A stretch of 7,032 nucleotides of DNA from a virus (IMGVR_UViG_648276650_000006), one strand, 5' to 3'; shown: positions 1-7,032, numbered from the stretch's first letter. Notes: generated from the letters alone by a model not told the origin. Numbers and translations are program-made.

Positions 1-32
1 GCGGGGGCGGGGGGGGGGGGGGGGGGGGGGGG
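1..32. repeat. Homopolymeric poly-G tract at the window edge, probably a sequencing or assembly artefact
   Basis: Seen in sequence: GCGGGGGC followed by an uninterrupted run of about 24 G (9..32) at the extreme 5' end, with no coding or structural context. Confidence 0.5.
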
Positions 33-62
33 CTTTGGGAATATGCGGGTGTGGGGAGATTG

Positions 63-473
63 TCAGTAACCGGTTTGTACCTTATACAGCCGCAGGGTTT
101 TGCTGCCCCGAACAATCTTCACATACAGGGCATTATCTTCCGCGCTGCGTACAAAACCGGCCTTCACATCGCCCTTACAGTCACCACCATCGTAAGGAAC
201 ATTGATGCCGGTCTGGCGCACCAGGTCGATAATCCCGAAGCTTAAATCTTCACAGGCTGGGCCCGGCAGGTCCTGAATCAGGGCAAATTTATGGTCGTCG
301 CTGACACCGGTCAGTGAGCACATGGACGTATTGATGTCGTTTCCCTGGCACCAGTACTCCTGGCCGGGATTGTCTTTATCCATCAGACTTGCCGGAAGCT
401 GAGCGGCACCGGCACTGAAGGCGGCAAGTGACAGAATGAGGGCAGGTACAGCAGAGGTCATTATTTTCAGCAT
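63..473 (-). CDS. Small secreted/periplasmic 4-Cys protein with N-terminal signal peptide (YfjT/YkfB-like, tentative)
   Basis: 136-aa ORF. N-terminus MLKIMTSAVPALILSLAAFSAGAA-QLP has the n/h/c layout of a Sec signal peptide with an AxA-type cleavage site. AGGAAG Shine-Dalgarno lies 6 nt upstream of the ATG at 473. Mature part has 4 Cys, including W-C-x9-C. Family name is from recollection, not a search. Confidence 0.6.
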   Translation of the reverse strand: MLKIMTSAVPALILSLAAFSAGAAQLPASLMDKDNPGQEYWCQGNDINTSMCSLTGVSDDHKFALIQDLPGPACEDLSFGIIDLVRQTGINVPYDGGDCKGDVKAGFVRSAEDNALYVKIVRGSKTLRLYKVQTGY

Positions 474-539
474 GGTCTTCTTCCTGAATTAATCCAGCCC
501 GCTGTCGGGCAAAATGAGAGAGGTTGATATCGGGTGTTA

Positions 540-977
540 TCAGAAGCGCCGGTAGCGAAACAGCTCTTTGCCCTGGTAAAGTGCCACCAGGTCGTCATAT
601 TCCGGCTTCTTCTGGTTGGGTTTAAAGGTCACTACCGTGCCCGGACGGCACAGGTCTTTTACGGTGAGTCCGTATTTCTTGTCCGGAGTAATGGTGAATC
701 CTTTCGACACATCGTTGCGCATGATAGTTATCCAGCCCCACAGGCCGCCTTCGCAGTCTTTAAAGGGTGCGGAACGCACCGTGACCATCCCGCCCAGGCG
801 GTCAACAGACATGGCTTCGCATTTTCCGGTAACCTGACGATGCGCATCGCACCAGAAAATGTTCCCGTTGTTGTCATTAACTACAGCAGGGAGGGTCCGG
901 TTATAAGGCTGAGCCTGAGCGCCCACACAGAGCAGAAGGCTGCCGGTAATACCCAGTACTTTAATCAGTGTTTTCAT
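540..977 (-). CDS. Small secreted 4-Cys protein with signal peptide, paralogous to the 63..473 product (YfjS/YafY-like, tentative)
   Basis: The track ORF 540..1103 starts at a GTG and would overlap the upstream gene by 85 nt. The internal ATG at 975..977 has an AGGA 8 nt upstream, leaves a 41-nt intergenic gap, and gives MKTLIKVLGITGSLLLCVGAQA-QP, a typical signal peptide. Shares the W-C-x9-C pattern with the neighbouring ORF. Confidence 0.55.
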   Translation of the reverse strand: MKTLIKVLGITGSLLLCVGAQAQPYNRTLPAVVNDNNGNIFWCDAHRQVTGKCEAMSVDRLGGMVTVRSAPFKDCEGGLWGWITIMRNDVSKGFTITPDKKYGLTVKDLCRPGTVVTFKPNQKKPEYDDLVALYQGKELFRYRRF

Positions 978-1018
978 TACGTTGGTCCTAAACAGAGAAA
1001 GAATCAGGTAGCGGTCAT

Positions 1019-1555
1019 TCAGGCCCAGACAGTCAGGGCCAGCATCAAAAGCCATACCCAGAAGTAAGCCGGTTTCTGACCGAGAGTTTTCGCCCGCCGC
1101 CACAGATAGAACGGCACCAGCCAGGCCAGTTTGCCGAACGTGGTGGTGTCCACTCCGGCCTTACGCAGGCGTCGTTCATCGAGATACCCCAGAGCAATAT
1201 TGAGCAGCAGCGTGATAAACCAGTACTGCCCACCCGAGACGGCATCATATGCCTCGTCAAATGACATCCCGCTCAATCCTGCAGTCCACAACTCCAGCGC
1301 GTAGCCAATGAAGGGAGCAAATGCCAGCGTCCACACAACGCCACCCGGAATGCGGTTCCCCGGCAGCGCTGGTGGTGTGGTGCTCCGGAGCAGCGTCGAA
1401 GCCAGCGGAGTAGCGGAGACCGGCTGCCACTCTGCCATTCCCTGTCGCCACACCAGAGTGGATGCAGTCAGTTCACCGCGCATAATCAGGCTGGTGATGT
1501 CGTCTTCGGTCACATTGTCGTGGCGTATGCCATTTTTCTCGTAATGCCAGGTCAT
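1019..1555 (-). CDS. Membrane protein with N-terminal DUF4339 (GYF-like) domain and hydrophobic C-terminal half
   Basis: 178-aa ORF. N-terminus WHYEKNGIRHDNVTEDDITSLIMRGELTASTLVWRQGMAEWQP matches the DUF4339 pattern as I recall it (W-Y..G...GP/V..L..L...G.L...TLVW..GM..W.P). C-terminal half has several hydrophobic stretches (DUF2628-like by recollection). AAGGA Shine-Dalgarno about 6 nt upstream of the ATG at 1555; 25-nt gap to the upstream regulator stop. Confidence 0.6.
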   Translation of the reverse strand: MTWHYEKNGIRHDNVTEDDITSLIMRGELTASTLVWRQGMAEWQPVSATPLASTLLRSTTPPALPGNRIPGGVVWTLAFAPFIGYALELWTAGLSGMSFDEAYDAVSGGQYWFITLLLNIALGYLDERRLRKAGVDTTTFGKLAWLVPFYLWRRAKTLGQKPAYFWVWLLMLALTVWA

Positions 1556-1580
1556 TGTTTTTCCTTCTTAACAGAGGTAA

Positions 1581-2204
1581 TTAAATCAGTGTGTTGCCCG
1601 GCTCCTCCTCTGAGGGCCCAGGAGACAGGACTTCACGGATACAGCTGAAGTGCGGAAGGGCCCGGATAAAGCCCGCCTGTGTGGTTAACTGGCTGAGACG
1701 TTTTAGCGGGGTGAAAGTTGTATTGAGGACTGTCACCGCATGGATGGTCGCCAGTGGATGCACGGTGATATGCCCGTTAAGTTCACCGGTGAGGTACCAG
1801 CAGCCGTCGAGTGATATCAGGCGGTACGGGGCCAGTCCGTCACAGCGCTCTCCCTCAGCCAGCAGCAGTACCCGTTGGCAGGCGGTAATAGCACTGACGA
1901 GACGGTAGAACACCAGTGAGGTGGCCGGTGATATAGTCTGTGGCGGTTGCCACACCAGACAGGGCATCCCTCCTGCTGTGAGCAGCATGCCCGCCAGACG
2001 CCGGTCCAGCCCCGGAAAGATATCGGCCAGTCCGGACCGGTGAGCAAAGGTCAGCGCATCCAGCTCACCCTGTACGCCCCCACTGGTGCTGCGCAGGCGG
2101 CATTGCCCTCGTCGATACTCCAGGTCCAGATACATCAGCCGTTCGCGAAAATCCCGTCGCAGGGTACGGACTGACACACTAAACTCTGCAGCCAGCCGGG
2201 CCAT
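1581..2204 (-). CDS. yfjR: HTH (DeoR-type) + WYL-domain transcriptional regulator, YfjR-like; coordinates are the longest canonical-start ORF, which appears N-terminally truncated
   Basis: ORF contains the HTH recognition region LAAEFSVSVRTLRRDF and a literal WYL motif (LDGCWYLTGELNGH). The frame stays open 29 codons upstream (to 2291), encoding (I)TQAERRHDRLAVRLSLIISRLVAGETLN, which completes helix 1 of the HTH. That stretch has no ATG/GTG/TTG; it begins at an ATA codon (2289..2291) with GGAG 7 nt upstream. Symbol is by family recollection; paralogues in other islands are possible. Confidence 0.55.
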   Translation of the reverse strand: MARLAAEFSVSVRTLRRDFRERLMYLDLEYRRGQCRLRSTSGGVQGELDALTFAHRSGLADIFPGLDRRLAGMLLTAGGMPCLVWQPPQTISPATSLVFYRLVSAITACQRVLLLAEGERCDGLAPYRLISLDGCWYLTGELNGHITVHPLATIHAVTVLNTTFTPLKRLSQLTTQAGFIRALPHFSCIREVLSPGPSEEEPGNTLI

Positions 2205-2499
2205 GTTCAGCGTCTCACCGGCAACCAGGCGGCTGATTATCAGTGACAGCCTGACAGCCAGTCGGTCGTGACGGCGCTCTGCCTGTGTTATCTCAAATCT
2301 CCGTAATAATTAACTGACTGAATATGAAATGATTCTAAAGAGGGGGGCGGACAGGGTATGGACATGGAATGAACTATTTTTTATCTGCCACCGGAGGCAA
2401 GCCCAACGCGGCGCACCGTGAAATACGGTGATAAAACACTCAATCCAATGGAGGTAAAACGGACAGGGAGTGTCCTTTCCCAACATGCTGATAACAAGC

Positions 2500-3324
2500 T
2501 CAGGACTGAAACCCACTCAGCATCGCTTCCGCCATCACCCAGAGAGCCCGGTTGAGCTTCACATCGCCGTCGATACCACGCACGGCGCGGGTGTGTGTTC
2601 GCCCACCTTTTGCACTCCGGCCACTGAGCCCGCCCTTAATCAGGTTCTCCTGAATACGCTGGTATGTGGTCCACAGGTCATTGCTCTCATCCTGCCAGCG
2701 GCGTGGGGAGAGTATCTGAGGTGCTGTCACCGGCTGGTGGTCCTCACCAAAACGGTACGTCAGTGCAGCCTGTGCCAGAGCCTGTTGTGCAGGTGGCGGC
2801 AGCATCAGCGACTGCATGGCATCCCGCTTCTCTTCCACACGGTCAAAAATACCCAGCACTTCATACGCCCCCTCAATCACCTGACTCACGACATCTCCTT
2901 TGTGCGGTACCCGCACCTCGCCGAACGATTCACCGCAGACAAGCCCGTTCTGGCATACCGCACGGAATAATCCCGGTAACATCTGATACGAGCTGGTGCC
3001 GTCATGAGAATTGAGCAGAATGATTTCTGGGACTTGCTTGCCAGTAATTTGTCCCTCCCGGCGCAGACGTAACATATGCTTTGTATGCTCGCGACGCCCT
3101 GGGTCACGCACCCGGGTCTGGCAGGCAAAGAAAGGCTGAAAGCCTTCACACTGCAGATTTTCAAGAACGGTAATGGTTGGTATCCAGGTATACCGTGCGC
3201 TACGAGACGCATGCTTCTCCTCGCTGAAGACACTGGGCACTACACGAAACAGCTCTTCCTGGGTTAACGGACGGTCACGACGAATAAGGTTTGCTGCGCC
3301 AAAGCGCGAAGCCAGACGGGTCAT
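2500..3324 (-). CDS. yfjQ: DUF932-family protein (YfjQ/YafZ-like)
   Basis: 274-aa product from the second in-frame ATG (3322..3324), which has a perfect AGGAG 7 nt upstream; the track start at 3339 lacks an SD. N-terminus MTRLASRFGAANLIRRDRPLTQEELFRVVPSVF matches my recollection of YfjQ/YafZ proteins, and length is close to the ~273 aa I recall. Lies directly after a GTPase gene as in CP4-57-type islands. Confidence 0.6.
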   Translation of the reverse strand: MTRLASRFGAANLIRRDRPLTQEELFRVVPSVFSEEKHASRSARYTWIPTITVLENLQCEGFQPFFACQTRVRDPGRREHTKHMLRLRREGQITGKQVPEIILLNSHDGTSSYQMLPGLFRAVCQNGLVCGESFGEVRVPHKGDVVSQVIEGAYEVLGIFDRVEEKRDAMQSLMLPPPAQQALAQAALTYRFGEDHQPVTAPQILSPRRWQDESNDLWTTYQRIQENLIKGGLSGRSAKGGRTHTRAVRGIDGDVKLNRALWVMAEAMLSGFQS

Positions 3325-3350
3325 AAGCAGACTCCTCATGATGGAAAATT

Positions 3351-3387
3351 AAATACAAAAAGCCCCGCCGCAAAATCGCGGCAGGGC
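3351..3387 (-). terminator. Rho-independent terminator-like hairpin between the GTPase and DUF932 genes
   Basis: Minus-strand RNA: stem GCCCUGCCGC / loop / GCGGCGGGGC (10 bp, one mismatch; plus 3362..3387), followed 3' by UUUUUGUAUUU (plus-strand A-run 3351..3361). Begins about 30 nt after the GTPase stop and ends about 25 nt before the DUF932 start. Confidence 0.55.
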
Positions 3388-3418
3388 TCAGGAAACTACG
3401 GGTTAGAAGGGTTAATGT

Positions 3419-4282
3419 TCAGAAGAAGAAATTCCAGACTGCACGGGCGACTGATACCACGATGTCGCGCACAGACTGGATGACTGACCGAACCTGGGCC
3501 GGTATCAGGGGCATGGAACTTACTGTATCCAGTACCGAGCCGACCGTTTCACCAAAATCGTCACGGGCTTTTTTATTAACGGCATCGGTACGAAGTGGCG
3601 CACTGAGTTGTACTGCCACCTGACTACTGGCCTCCCGTGGCAAGCAACGAATCATCCGCTCAGCCATCATCCGCAGCCCCCACTGCAAACGTATCGACAC
3701 CGCACAGACAGGGTTTACAGGTTGGAACAACTCATGCAGCAGACAGATTTTGAGGCTGATATTTCGTTTCTGCTCTGTAGACAGCTTTTCACCACCGCAG
3801 GTGGGTTCAACCTTGTCAGACTGGCTGATAACAAACAACACCTTATGCCGGTATGCTTCACCAATCACCTGCCGGTAAAAATGTTCATCTACGGCCAGCG
3901 CCCGATCATCACCCTTAATCAACCACAGAACCAGATCCAGCTGGGGGAGCTGTTTACGGTACAGCGTGGCATACTCTGTATCCCGGCGCTCAGACTCCCC
4001 GACGCCGGGTAAATCCACCAGCGTCATAAAGCGCTTCCCCACTTGCAGGCGAAAGCGTAAGGGTTCGCGTGTGCAGGCGGTCACATCGCTGACCGGTGAA
4101 ATCTCACCGGTAAACAGGGCATTACATAAGCTGCTCTTGCCCGAGCCAGTTTTACCCATGATGCCAATCACCGGCTCATAGTCAGTAAGCTGATTTATCT
4201 GCTGCAGAATACGCTCTGATGCCCAGTGCGGCAGGTTAGAAAGCGAATGCTGCAGTGACTGTAAACCTTCAAATTGATTCAT
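3419..4282 (-). CDS. yfjP: P-loop GTPase of the YfjP/YkfA/YeeP family (50S ribosome-binding GTPase-like domain)
   Basis: 287-aa ORF. Walker A/G1 GIMGKTGSGKSS, G3-like DLPG. AGGAG Shine-Dalgarno 5 nt upstream of the ATG at 4280..4282. Length matches what I recall for YfjP/YkfA (287 aa). The yfjP versus ykfA assignment rests on the downstream DUF932 and WYL-regulator order and is not certain. Confidence 0.7.
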   Translation of the reverse strand: MNQFEGLQSLQHSLSNLPHWASERILQQINQLTDYEPVIGIMGKTGSGKSSLCNALFTGEISPVSDVTACTREPLRFRLQVGKRFMTLVDLPGVGESERRDTEYATLYRKQLPQLDLVLWLIKGDDRALAVDEHFYRQVIGEAYRHKVLFVISQSDKVEPTCGGEKLSTEQKRNISLKICLLHELFQPVNPVCAVSIRLQWGLRMMAERMIRCLPREASSQVAVQLSAPLRTDAVNKKARDDFGETVGSVLDTVSSMPLIPAQVRSVIQSVRDIVVSVARAVWNFFF

Positions 4283-4300
4283 TACTGCTCCTCTGAAATG

Positions 4301-4335
4301 AAAACAAAAAAGGCAAGACCGTGAGGTTCTGCCTT
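4301..4335 (-). terminator. Terminator-like hairpin plus U-tract in the leader immediately upstream of the GTPase gene
   Basis: Minus-strand RNA: about 11-bp stem (plus 4310..4320 pairing with 4325..4335; one mismatch, one wobble), loop GUGA, followed 3' by UUUUUUGUUUUC (plus A-run 4301..4311), then the AGGAG SD and ATG. It faces transcripts entering from the AT-rich cargo side. Confidence 0.5.
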
Positions 4336-4384
4336 TAATGAGGTATGTTCAGGGGAATGATATATATCTGAATATTTTTAGAAT

Positions 4385-4430
4385 GCTGATAGGCCGTTCT
4401 GTGCCAGGAGCGGACGTTGCGAACGCTTTG
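4385..4430. repeat. Left copy of a degenerate ~46-bp direct repeat (core GTGCCAGGAGCGGAC)
   Basis: Manual alignment to 5363..5408 at a constant offset of 978 bp: core 15-mer 14/15 identical, flanks 9/16 and 7/15, about 30/46 overall. Located in the divergent intergenic region upstream of the Toprim gene. Confidence 0.45.
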
Positions 4431-4570
4431 AGACTGATGATCATTTCAGATGTTAATTAATTAAAGGCATGGTAATGTTTAGGCTCTGTAGGGTAAATTT
4501 CCCGCAGTATTTTCGGTTATCAATAGCTTGTGGAGTTAACTCTCAGAGGGGGCAGTTAGTGGGAACAACA

Positions 4571-5269
4571 ATGGAGGACATCCAATACGAAGAAATGTTA
4601 AATGAGCTTCTATTCGAAAAAGTAATGAAGAATGAAGCAAAAAAACAATGCATTTACATTTTTGTCGAAGGTGAGTCTGAAGAACTTGCTTTTCAACCCT
4701 TACTTGAAGACTGTGGTATAGATTTCGATAAGCTTGGTATTGTAATTGCAAATTACAATGGGATTGGTAACTTAAAACACGCCATAAGACTTCTACATAA
4801 AACATTGAGCCATGATCGACCAATAATAGTAACGTATGATGATGATCATGAAGGAAAAATAATAAAGAAAATAAATAGCCCATTGATCACATACTTTAAA
4901 ATACCATTTAGCCCTGTAGTTTCTTATAATGATGGAACTTTAGGCGGAACATTTGAAGAAAGCTTTCCTAAAGATTGCTTTATAGAAGCTTGCTTTCAGC
5001 AAAATGTTATAGCTAGTTCTTTTTTATCAAAACGTAATGACTTTGAAAAAAAATTCAATCCAACTCAGCCATGGTTAGCTCAATTAGCACAATTCATTTC
5101 TTCCAATGGTGGGACTCCTAATTCTATAAATAAAACAAAATTAGCTGAAAACATGATGCTTTCAGTATCTCAGATACCTGAAACCTATAATGAGTTAGCA
5201 AAGTTAATCATTGATATTAGAAACAAGACCCCAATAAAACACCCTGAAAATGTAGATTTGAATTTGTAA
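4571..5269 (+). CDS. Standalone Toprim-domain protein, a putative nuclease with an OLD/AriB-like catalytic core
   Basis: 232 aa from the ATG at 4571, where G+C content drops; the track ORF begins at ATG 4469, which is an alternative start. Toprim signature seen directly: hydrophobic strand IYIFVEGESEE with E33, and IIVTYDDDHEGK with D90-x-D92-x-x-G95. No Walker A motif in this ORF or in any adjacent ORF. Markedly AT-rich with A/T-ending codons, unlike the backbone. Confidence 0.6.
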   Translation: MEDIQYEEMLNELLFEKVMKNEAKKQCIYIFVEGESEELAFQPLLEDCGIDFDKLGIVIANYNGIGNLKHAIRLLHKTLSHDRPIIVTYDDDHEGKIIKKINSPLITYFKIPFSPVVSYNDGTLGGTFEESFPKDCFIEACFQQNVIASSFLSKRNDFEKKFNPTQPWLAQLAQFISSNGGTPNSINKTKLAENMMLSVSQIPETYNELAKLIIDIRNKTPIKHPENVDLNL

Positions 5270-5362
5270 ATAATACTATTTATTTTCACGCACTGATTTT
5301 TCCGCGTTTGGTAGGTATTATCGCAACGTCCTATTTTCACTCATAGCTGCCCTACCTACCTT

Positions 5363-5408
5363 CTTGATGGGCAGCTTCGTGCCAGAAGCGGACATAGCAT
5401 CCGCTAAA
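5363..5408. repeat. Right copy of the degenerate ~46-bp direct repeat (core GTGCCAGAAGCGGAC)
   Basis: See the left copy at 4385..4430. This copy lies about 95 nt downstream of the Toprim gene stop and contains a small hairpin, AGCGGA / loop CATAGCA / TCCGCT. Confidence 0.45.
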
Positions 5409-5790
5409 GTAAAAGCAGGCGTTAATACCTGTGAGGGGTAAAAACGCGCATCGATTAACAAGAGTAACTGTAGTGATTCACAATCATGAAAAAATTTTCT
5501 TTATACAGAATAAGAAGCCATTTAATATGGTTAGAAGATTTAATTTAAGAGTAAATTATATATAATATATGGCTAATTAACTTATGTTAATGGAACTATA
5601 AAATGAAAACTTCAATGAGTTAATCGGTGGATTAAATAAATATATCGTTCCTGGACTTCAGAGAGATAAGACTAATGATTTTCAAAAATAGATTTCTGAA
5701 CAAGCAGTGAAAGTGTGGGGTGTTAACTAATACATCAAGATATACTTTAAACGGATAATATATAAAGTCACAATCAAAGGTAGATGAAAA

Positions 5791-6813
5791 ATGTTAGACT
5801 TAGAATATGCTGTAACTGAGCCTTTTTTAAATTACCATTTATTTCATGAAGGATTAAATACGAAGGTTAAGGTTTTAACCTCATCACTTAATCATGTGAT
5901 TGAATATTTATTGACGCCAGGCAATGAAAATAAAATGAATGAGCTCATTAAGAAAACTGATAAATCTTGGCAATTCCCGCCGAATTTTTCACTTCCAAGC
6001 CCTCCAGTTGATGAATCAAATTTAAAAAATAAAACATCATCAAGAAGACTAGATAAGGAAGAGGATAATAATGAATTAGATTATCAATTAAAGAAAAAGG
6101 AATTAGCGCAAGAGATGTTGTATTGGTATGTAAGTGAAATGGCTATATTTGGCACTTTTTCTGCTTTGGATGATTGTATTGTCGATATTGATTCTTGGTT
6201 TTCAAGTTGGGCAATGTTTAATAACACTCAAGATAAAAAATCGGAATCAACCAGTAGTAACAAAATTGAAAGGTTATATGATTCACACGAATGGAACATG
6301 AAGAACATAAAGACATTCCTTCCGATTTATGAGTATTTTTCAGCAGTTAGAAATTCAATAGCTCATAGGCAATCCAAAGCATCTCATAAGTTATCAGAGA
6401 TATCAAAATCCCAAGAATTAAAAGAGTCAGTAGAGAGAAACTTCCCAAAAGGTAAACCATTAAGTGAATTTGAATATAATGAAGATATATTCATCTCTCC
6501 AAAAACGTCGTTGCTTTGTTCTCACATAATAAGATTAATTTTCGAAGATATCAATAAATACATCATAAAAAAAATGGGTATTGAAGGTATCATCTACATG
6601 TCATGCAAACTTGCATTTGAACCATCATCTTATAATGAAAGCAAAGTTGTTAACTTAGCTAGAAATAGATTGAACGAAATCGTTAGTGGTCGATATCATG
6701 TAATTATAAAAGGTGAGGATGAAGCCGTTAAGGTTGCTGAGTCACTTGGCATTTGGCGTGATTGCGCTAAATTTCATGCGAACAATATGAGGAAATTAGA
6801 TCCAAAATTCTAA
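5791..6813 (+). CDS. Hypothetical 340-aa protein with an R-x4-H (RNSIAH) HEPN-like motif; candidate Abi-like RNase
   Basis: Long uninterrupted AT-rich ORF. AAGG lies about 10 nt upstream of the ATG, a weak SD. No P-loop. The single motif R187-N-S-I-A-H192 (nt 6349..6366) has the RNxxAH form common in HEPN RNases, within a predicted helical stretch (FLPIYEYFSAVRNSIAHRQ). The CDS call is stronger than the functional call, which rests on one short motif. Confidence 0.6.
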   Translation: MLDLEYAVTEPFLNYHLFHEGLNTKVKVLTSSLNHVIEYLLTPGNENKMNELIKKTDKSWQFPPNFSLPSPPVDESNLKNKTSSRRLDKEEDNNELDYQLKKKELAQEMLYWYVSEMAIFGTFSALDDCIVDIDSWFSSWAMFNNTQDKKSESTSSNKIERLYDSHEWNMKNIKTFLPIYEYFSAVRNSIAHRQSKASHKLSEISKSQELKESVERNFPKGKPLSEFEYNEDIFISPKTSLLCSHIIRLIFEDINKYIIKKMGIEGIIYMSCKLAFEPSSYNESKVVNLARNRLNEIVSGRYHVIIKGEDEAVKVAESLGIWRDCAKFHANNMRKLDPKF

Positions 6814-6899
6814 CCTTATCGCGAAATAATTTATGTGCCAGAGTTTCCCTGGCGCTATTGCGATAATGTTTTATTGGCCTATGCCTCGCAGATTAACAC

Positions 6900-6928
6900 A
6901 GGGCGATGTTAAAAGTCGCCCTTTATAG
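6900..6928 (+). terminator. Candidate intrinsic terminator downstream of the HEPN-like gene
   Basis: Plus strand: stem (A)GGGCGA / 9-nt loop / TCGCCC(T), followed by TTTATAG; about 90 nt after the stop at 6813. Short stem and weak U-tract. Confidence 0.35.
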
Positions 6929-7032
6929 TCAGAACAGATTCCTACTTCCGCTCCTCGCTCATAGCAGACCTTCAGATCCGGGAGGGTGTCCGCTTAGTGC
7001 TGTGAGTTCAACTGATGGACGCAACACACTTA

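Follow-up and report, generated by a model that had tools for sequence, protein, structure and literature searches.

Inversely oriented 24-bp dyad sites and the end of an IS30-family element at the right boundary of an AT-rich cargo module in a CP4-57-type island

Acinetobacter carries dif modules, which are bounded by inversely oriented short sites of two classes, are shuffled between replicons and are described as unique to that genus; the sites are dif-like 28-mers and the enzymes are those of the host Xer system (PMC13141974). Insertion sequences (ISs) of the IS1202 family act as the pdif hunters of Acinetobacter (PMC10132070). Another element, IS30, targets hot spots that are nearly palindromic and ∼24 bp long; it enters at their central 2 bp and generates 2-bp duplications (PMC9333248). 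Here we describe positions 6814–7032 of a stretch of viral DNA (IMGVR_UViG_648276650_000006; 7,032 nucleotides, the whole of which is called the window), where an AT-rich cargo of a CP4-57-type island ends at a pair of short dyad sites, T1 and T2, the second of which is cut by the end of an IS. The dif modules (pdif, XerC/XerD) are the closest described analogue of this arrangement.

Both sites are 24-bp dyads. T1, found at right module ends, has the format GTCCGC-NNN-TCGCTC-NNN-GCGGAC, and T2, found at left module ends, has the format GTCCGC-NNN-GTGCCA-NNN-GCGGAC. We define a module as a gene unit that runs from a T2 at its left to a T1 at its right, and a linker as the segment between a T1 and the next T2. 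L-numbers (L001–L045) denote comparison loci fetched for alignment and site scans. In these terms, 6814–7032 is made up of four consecutive parts, namely a module tail with a hairpin, a T1 site, a spacer leading into a T2 half-site, and one terminus of an IS30-family element, an anatomy in which we have high confidence (Table 1). The AT-rich cargo at 4392–6969 is one fused module with T2 at its left end and T1 at its right end, and it belongs to a module array beside the yfjP-like GTPase gene of the island. The account that we favour combines this composite interval with exchange of modules at T1 and T2 by a 200-aa tyrosine recombinase and with an IS that targets the sites, and we regard it as probable. 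Recombinase-driven exchange and IS targeting appear well supported by the comparisons below.

Table 1. Coordinates of features in the window
Feature	Position	Strand	Remark
T2 site GGCCGT TCT GTGCCA GGA GCGGAC	4392..4415	+	backbone/first-module junction
OLD-like TOPRIM open reading frame (ORF)	4469..5269	+	first gene of fused two-gene module
Degenerate T1 site GTCCTA TTT TCACTC ATA GCTGCC	5328..5351	+	after TOPRIM gene
T2 site GGCAGC TTC GTGCCA GAA GCGGAC	5370..5393	+	left end of 340-aa module
340-aa ORF	5791..6813	+	second gene of fused module
3′ untranslated module tail	6814..6945	+	G+C 0.43; moves with 340-aa gene in all contexts
Hairpin	6899..6923	+	9 pairs including G-U, 7-nt loop, then UUUAU
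T1 site TTCCGC TCC TCGCTC ATA GCAGAC	6946..6969	+	right end of module
Variable inter-site spacer CTTCAGATCCGGGAGGGT	6970..6987	+	18 nt, between T1 and half T2
Left T2 half GTCCGC TTA GTGC	6988..7000	+	13 nt, cut at central GC by IS
Right end of ISCfr4-like IS30-family IS	7001..7032	-	inverted repeat TGTGAGTTCAACTGATGGACGCAAC..., transposase stop and last 7 codons

The window carries the backbone genes of a CP4-57-type island (yfjP-like GTPase, DUF932 (yfjQ), antirestriction, RadC/JAB, DUF987 and CbtA/YeeU), and by the gene set that defines such islands, which also includes yfjJ, alpA and the integrase across the cargo, its context belongs to this type. Positions 29–4418 are ∼100% identical to the CP4-57-type island of E. 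coli LD93-1, and the backbone gene order agrees with that of the K-12 CP4-57 and ssrA islands. An earlier note on this DNA had placed the end of the cargo at the stop codon at 6813, followed by a return to backbone with a weak terminator at 6900–6921 and edge fragments that could not be interpreted. The G+C content does rise after 6813 and the hairpin is significantly stable, as that view would have it. However, no homologue of 6814–7032 was found in two E. coli genomes that share the backbone at ∼100% identity.

When the window was compared by BLAST with ten loci encoding an identical 340-aa protein, ∼99.7% identity extended to a right limit of 6974/6975, with left limits at 4394–4401 or 5370–5379. 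Base-level alignment of eight distinct right contexts gave identical sequence through ...TCCGCTCCTCGCTC to 6960 and differences from 6961, with the site consensus retained. These contexts include LysR/hydrolase genes, a 550-aa/Cap4-nuclease pair, cytochrome-b remnants and chromosomal lacI-type and cys genes, so that non-island chromosomal sites are among them. Since it travels with the 340-aa gene in eight independent contexts at ∼99.7% identity, 6814–6960 is still cargo; the next 40 nt are the site junction and the last 32 nt the IS end. The right cargo boundary therefore does lie within the interval, as the earlier note had it, but at ∼6960–6969 and not at the stop codon. That note had named two outcomes that would speak against a backbone flank, further cargo or an unrelated element, and both were found. 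We consider a backbone flank very improbable.

The change in base composition after 6813 is real in outline but uneven. The G+C content is 0.317 in the 340-aa ORF, 0.475 across 6814–7032 and 0.547 in the backbone at 1–4390; within the interval it is 0.43 at 6814–6945, 0.60 at 6946–7000 and 0.44 at 7001–7032. The rise is thus caused by the G+C-rich recombination-type sites and not by a return to backbone.

The hairpin in the module tail has the arms CAGGGCGAU (6899–6907) and GUCGCCCUU (6915–6923). The RNA fold of 6880–6940 (61 nt) had an energy of −16.7 kcal/mol (z = −3.3), with none of 200 shuffled sequences as stable, and as DNA the hairpin gave z = −3.6. It has the G+C-rich stem-loop of an intrinsic terminator but lacks the U-tract (≥5 U in 8), having only three U's before the following A, and a terminator scan of 6500–7032 returned no terminator-like sites. 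The hairpin is possibly a weak terminator or a 3′ mRNA-stabilising element for the 340-aa gene; of its suggested role as a terminator with a short T-run, the stable structure is confirmed and the terminator assignment is not. The absence of a tRNA-like T-arm was borne out by ARAGORN (0 genes) and by the lack of an Rfam match in the flank. A minus-strand frame said to end near 6960 does have a stop codon there (TGA, complement of 6959–6961) but is not a gene, because it crosses the IS terminus and two recombination-type sites.

The eight right contexts place the exchange point of the T1 site at 6946–6969 within its central hexamer TCGCTC (6955–6960). Three copies of a 15-nt end motif, GWGCSAGRAGCGGAC, lie in the window, where 0.03 would be expected (0/200 shuffles), and a generic repeat finder ranked 5326–5353/6944–6971 as the top direct repeat and 4386–4417/6944–6975 as the top inverted repeat, so the statement that no att-like repeat was visible does not stand. 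The T2 site at the backbone junction adjoins the upstream region of the yfjP-like GTPase gene and is the entry point of the array, its backbone half being joined to at least five first modules (L003/L013, L004, L010/L014/L016-type, L016 and L017). The T1 site after the TOPRIM gene has decayed, which is probably why the TOPRIM and 340-aa genes travel fused. We found no description of T1 or T2 in open-access papers or bioRxiv, including searches with literal 12–15-nt site strings, an earlier account elsewhere being possible.

In the islands, the sites alternate in the order T2, module, T1, spacer, T2, module, T1, all in one orientation. All left ends have GTGCCA and all right ends TCGCTC, and the T1–T2 spacers were 14–18 nt long in 23 distinct junctions. 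The modules consist of one or two genes between T2 and T1 and occur in CP4-57-type islands, enterobacterial plasmids and Pantoea megaplasmids. Their cargo includes an acetyltransferase, the 340-aa gene alone or with TOPRIM, LysR with a hydrolase, the 550-aa protein with Cap4 nuclease, a cation-efflux protein with cytochrome b, APH(6) and RibD_C; further modules in E. coli ssrA islands carry a kinase, TIR/DUF4238 and a Gabija-like pair. The order of modules varies among otherwise near-identical islands. Genes lie in both orientations within modules, which therefore presumably carry their own promoters.

The linkers also reassort: ACAGCGGACCTTCAAACCAGCCATCTCGTCCTCTCT was found after three different modules and before two different ones. 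The bases GGA, GAA or GTA after the hexamer are linked to the module, and the 3 nt on its other side are linked to the linker. For T1 and T2 alike, this restricts exchange to the invariant 6-bp core.

Three single-gene modules (340-aa, RibD_C and APH(6)), each flanked by T2 and T1, were found in one 5.5-Mb genome (L007: 9580–11179, 14584–15584 and 19734–20788). They are 3–4 kb apart, and the intervening ordinary-looking genes lie between T1 and T2. The CP4-57 island of E. coli K-12 MG1655 (L015) has one clear site only (23403–23426, minus strand), with the same backbone half (GCTGATAGGCCGTTCT GTGCCA AAA GCGGAA) but between yfjW and ypjI, not beside yfjP; at the thresholds used, its cargo (abpAB, rnlAB) has no recognisable flanking sites.

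Most arrays contain a gene for a 200-aa protein that consists of the PF00589 domain alone, that is, a tyrosine-recombinase catalytic domain. Its scores fell well short of the thresholds set for the Xer, invertase and integron-integrase models (for the last, 16.2 and 15.5 bits where 265 and 435 bits are required). Each copy of the gene examined is bracketed by T1 and T2: T1 lies ∼38 nt upstream of the start codon and has an unusual inner arm (CGGGAC or AAGGGAC), and the stop codon is followed directly by GGGCTGCAAyAGCAGCCC and T2. The protein is 100% identical in 12 island loci, 98% on a Kosakonia plasmid, 93.5% on an E. coli IncY plasmid, and 87.5% and 84.7% on two Pantoea megaplasmids. This bracketing is constant while the neighbouring modules are unrelated in each case, and the 200-aa protein is the obvious candidate for the recombinase of T1 and T2. 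An inverted repeat, ATCTCC...GGAGAT, is conserved between T1 and the recombinase start (L004 16660–16717; L030/L031 14940–15000; L044/L045 19939–20000); its second arm falls on the likely Shine-Dalgarno sequence, a hint that the recombinase is controlled at the level of translation.

The junctions are rare in E. coli. They were found by BLAST in 128 of 5426 genomes, at one or two places in each, a count that is a lower bound because BLAST is insensitive to short degenerate motifs. On a 613-kb megaplasmid of Pantoea agglomerans, 45 sites were found in three of four sampled regions of 41–50 kb (15 sites, within 18 kb, 17 and 13) and none in a 50-kb stretch of ordinary operons; the expectation, from a mononucleotide shuffle of one region, is ∼0.1 site per 41 kb. 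Most are T1/T2 pairs around single small genes. Such clustering is the behaviour of an array, unlike the dispersal of repetitive extragenic palindromic (REP) sequences.

The distribution bears directly on a second explanation, that the sites are REP- or REPIN-like palindromes spread by an enzyme of the REP-associated tyrosine transposase (RAYT) type or by slippage, with modules reassorting by homologous or illegitimate recombination and ISs targeting the sites as they do REPs. The sites do lie between genes, often as inverted pairs, an intact junction forms a single long imperfect hairpin (L004:11150–11225, z = −2.7), and IS targeting of REPs is documented (PMC1525189). However, a REP-like dispersed repeat was rejected on the clustered distribution. 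No RAYT or IS200/IS605-like gene is annotated in the arrays examined, and exchange falls within a 6-bp core in two site classes whose cores consistently differ, as for an enzyme-defined crossover. The recombinase gene, moreover, is invariably bracketed by the sites. We therefore consider a REP-type origin unlikely.

A folded structure would be expected to show compensation between the arms. Arm deviations in the 23 junctions were almost never compensated in any of four pairing schemes (1/39, 0/31, 1/25 and 2/40), so that folding is not under selection; of the two kinds of arm, those on the linker side are the better conserved. This pattern fits arms that serve as half-sites for a protein bound to duplex DNA, with a 6-bp crossover region between them, as at the core sites of classical tyrosine recombinases. 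The idea that the whole T1–spacer–T2 junction is a folded attC- or REPIN-like hairpin, for which apparent compensations at 5345–5376, at the APH module site of L007 and in the hairpin after the recombinase gene had spoken, was rejected as a general rule because the 23 junctions were essentially without compensation. This leaves little room for the junctions being integron-like attC sites recombined as folded single strands. Small cassettes separated by imperfect palindromes of ∼65 nt are suggestive of integrons, as is the specific targeting of the sites by ISs; IS1111-attC elements target attC sites in integrons. However, RYYYAAC/GTTRRRY core sites are absent from the boundaries, which lie in both halves of the junction, and the arms show no structural covariation. 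Genes also occur in both orientations within modules, and a 200-aa recombinase scoring 15–16 bits against cut-offs of 265–435 is far from an integron integrase. We give the attC explanation almost no credence.

To the right of the T2 half, a megablast search of 5,426 complete E. coli genomes with 6700–7032 gave matches to the last 46 nt alone, and every match lay under features annotated as 'IS30 family' or 'ISCfr4 family' transposase, at the 3′ end of a minus-strand transposase gene. Positions 7001–7032 are identical at 32 of 32 nt to annotated ISCfr4-family copies in L001, L002, L020, L022 and L025, and by this match to family members they hold the terminal inverted repeat of the IS. The first IS base is 7001, because independent chromosomal and plasmid copies align from TGTGAGTTCAAC... 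for 1,219–1,221 bp. The minus-strand peptide KCVASIS*, with its stop at the complement of 7008–7010, is identical to the C-terminus of the intact 387-aa ISCfr4-family transposase; the window holds only the last seven codons and the stop, and the element may be truncated, as the L001 copy is. The edge thus contains a real coding fragment where the earlier note had seen only uninterpretable ones, and the ATG at 7015 said to run off the edge falls inside the IS inverted repeat. The end of the available sequence at 7032 may itself be due to the edge lying in an IS.

The eight full ISCfr4-like copies that were examined come from plasmids of Klebsiella, Enterobacter and Pantoea and from chromosomes of E. 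coli. Every one of them is inserted centrally in a 24-bp GTCCGC...GCGGAC dyad and shows a GC duplication. The one flank visible in the window, GTCCGCTTAGTGC|TGTGAG, has the same format as the left flanks of these copies. A preference of the ISCfr4-like transposase for these dyads would explain why the edge meets the IS exactly at the centre of a site. The copy in L020 interrupts the T1 of a cytochrome-b module known from the islands. The accessible text of literature mentioning ISCfr4 contains no description of a specificity for module junctions. The 13 nt GTCCGCTTAGTGC had also been tried as part of the IS inverted repeat; this was rejected because they vary among copies with an identical repeat and independent copies align only from TGTGAG.

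Older insertions are visible elsewhere. The last T2 of many arrays contains an IS30-like left inverted-repeat remnant, GTGC|TGTGAGTTCAACGGGTCTATGCAAC, at the same central position (L003 12655–12740; L012 11157–11240; likewise L004, L005, L006, L010, L013, L041 and L043), followed by cytochrome-b gene fragments. It represents an older and independent insertion event of the type seen at the window edge. In L012 (7055–8583; the same element in L041), an IS110-family element lies off-centre in T1 (GTCCGCTTC | IS | CTCGCTCACAGCGGAC), near the left edge of the hexamer. Other, unrelated genes of the IS110 family are present in L025, where the coding sequence ends ∼55 nt from a site, and in L030, where no site was found close by. 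A second IS family may also target T1 and T2.

The association with an IS30-family element raises the further possibility that the modules are non-autonomous transposons with 15-bp imperfect terminal inverted repeats (GWGCSAGRAGCGGAC), mobilised in trans by a transposase, possibly of the IS30 family, into palindromic GTCCGC...GCGGAC targets. Modules do carry inverted terminal 15-mers, solitary modules lie among ordinary chromosomal genes in L007, and deleting a module in silico leaves a palindromic c–b empty site; an IS30-family element with exactly such a target preference also co-occurs with the sites. However, the module ends are unlike the ISCfr4-like inverted repeats (TGTGAGTTCAAC...), and mobilisation by an IS30-family transposase was rejected because the two kinds of end are unrelated. 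No direct target duplication flanks the modules, and linkers reassort independently, just as modules do, which simple transposition does not predict. The genes between T1 and T2 in L007 may themselves be long linker-type modules. We consider the transposon explanation quite improbable.

Returning to exchange by the 200-aa recombinase, T1 and T2 would be duplex-DNA recombination sites in which two inverted binding arms flank a 6-bp crossover region. The recombinase would act on both, and T1 × T1 and T2 × T2 exchange within the hexamers would excise, insert and swap modules and linkers among islands and plasmids. The ISCfr4-like transposase would take the 24-bp dyads as its preferred target, with a 2-bp GC duplication, like IS30 at its hot spots. 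Beyond the window, we would predict ∼1,190 more IS bases, then GC and CAGrAGCGGAC, and then the next module or linker. The cores of the IS-interrupted sites in L023 and L024 (TCG|CCA and TCG|CCG) combine two module-side halves; the joint of an excised circular module is predicted to have such a make-up, but the match is only suggestive.

Several points weigh against this account. For several arrays (L003, L016 and L017), the fetched locus contains no recombinase gene; either the enzyme would act there in trans or these arrays would be fossils. Homologues of the recombinase with 50–63% identity (those of Cupriavidus and Vibrio were examined) lack recognisably similar flanking sites. No circular intermediate or a–d joint site of a free module was observed directly, and the model is built from comparison. 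The T1 of the window is slightly degenerate (arms TTCCGC and GCAGAC). The exact 41-nt junction (6966–7006) is absent from genome_contigs and metagenome_contigs, which is why the stretch past the IS tip is predicted. The related-locus search returned one species-representative genome only, that of Enterobacter sp. Bisph1, and none of 20 places encoding the 340-aa or TOPRIM protein has an IS30 element downstream.

The cargo itself is of interest. The TOPRIM ORF encodes 266 aa from the first ATG (264 aa as called elsewhere) and its product matches Pfam PF20469 (E = 2e-9), with weak PADLOC GajA-TOPRIM matches. For the 340-aa protein, no Pfam or NCBIfam family was found and the PADLOC matches, of CARF/HEPN type, are marginal. 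An identical 340-aa protein occurs in many enterobacterial genomes (the index lists 438 blocks), and its module has three different left partners (window-type, L004-type and L007). The fused AT-rich pair is 100% identical at the protein level across many enterobacterial genomes and contexts. In L036 (5283–10014), this module is found among chromosomal cys genes, with a RelB/ParE pair on one side and the gene for a 446-aa HTH/rve-type transposase on the other; its right junction corresponds, in reverse complement, to the sequence flanking the IS in L001 and L020. The pair looks like a candidate anti-phage system.

For annotation, these results mean that the cargo ends at ∼6960–6969, that the flank is not backbone and that the sequence edge lies inside an IS. 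The T1 and T2 sites give a simple sequence rule for delimiting modules, and hence candidate defence systems such as the TOPRIM and 340-aa pair, and they explain the strict target choice of a widespread IS30-family element. CP4-57-type islands are frequent in E. coli, and 'hotspot' is usually all that is said of their cargo turnover; exchange at T1 and T2, if true, would provide a concrete mechanism for rapid swapping of defence and accessory genes in this region. It would also offer a compact recombinase and site pair.

The broader proposal is that Enterobacterales carry an undescribed module system, in which a 200-aa recombinase with T1 (TCGCTC) and T2 (GTGCCA) builds and reshuffles arrays of modules of one to a few genes. 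The cargo would be phage-defence, resistance and small-metabolism genes, and the hosts would be the CP4-57-type islands of E. coli and its relatives, plasmids of Klebsiella, E. coli and Kosakonia, and Pantoea megaplasmids with dozens of modules. We put this forward tentatively, as a proposal whose chances fall slightly short of even. If true, integrons and dif modules would be joined by a third cassette or module system, one that belongs to the best-studied family of bacteria.

Among known systems, the recombinase itself resembles the FimB/FimE-type invertases in being ∼200 aa long with a catalytic domain only. These invertases act on short inverted repeats. Matches to the NCBIfam tyrosine-type DNA invertase models were weak (25 and 17 bits; cut-offs 221–222 bits), and here many-site arrays bound different genes in place of a single invertible promoter element. 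REP doublets, REPINs and bacterial interspersed mosaic elements are, like T1 and T2, short extragenic imperfect palindromes that often form inverted pairs with a short spacer and serve as IS targets. In contrast, T1 and T2 are clustered and not dispersed, have uncompensated arms and no RAYT gene, and coincide with module exchange points and a tyrosine recombinase gene. The ISCfr4-like element shares with IS30 the central 2-bp insertion into a near-palindromic target with a 2-bp duplication (GC in the eight full copies), but its target is a specific site family at module junctions rather than sporadic hot spots.

Like integrons, the arrays consist of mostly one- or two-gene cassettes with accessory or defence functions, have a fixed entry site beside the backbone (here the T2 at the GTPase gene, with at least five first modules), involve a tyrosine recombinase and have IS elements that target the cassette sites. 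Unlike integrons, they have no attC cores, the boundaries lying in the TCGCTC and GTGCCA hexamers of two 24-bp dyads. It is the sequence of the sites that is conserved and not a structure such as a folded bottom strand, sites are present at both ends of each module, and the recombinase is a minimal 200-aa protein and not IntI.

The closest likeness is to dif modules. In both cases, mobile DNA carries discrete modules whose borders are short dyad sites that alternate in (inverse) orientation. Both have two classes (C and D there, module and linker here), both are shuffled between replicons with exchange tied to the central regions of the sites, and both are accompanied by a dedicated site-hunting IS (the IS1202 family there, the ISCfr4-like element here). 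The sites differ, however. A dif-like site has an 11-bp XerC arm, a 6-bp spacer and an 11-bp XerD arm, whereas T1 and T2 have 24 bp (6+3 / 6 / 3+6) with GTCCGC/GCGGAC arms, come in two classes with different hexamers and usually form T1–spacer–T2 pairs. To our knowledge, they are unrelated in sequence to the 28-bp dif-like or E. coli dif/cer consensus. A dedicated 200-aa recombinase gene is associated with the arrays here, as opposed to the host XerCD, and its conserved bracketing argues for an enzyme other than XerC/XerD. Dif modules are described as unique to Acinetobacter, whereas T1 and T2 occur in islands and plasmids of Enterobacterales. On the tentative proposal above, they would form a functional counterpart of integrons and of Acinetobacter dif modules, with a site-hunting ISCfr4-like IS of their own.

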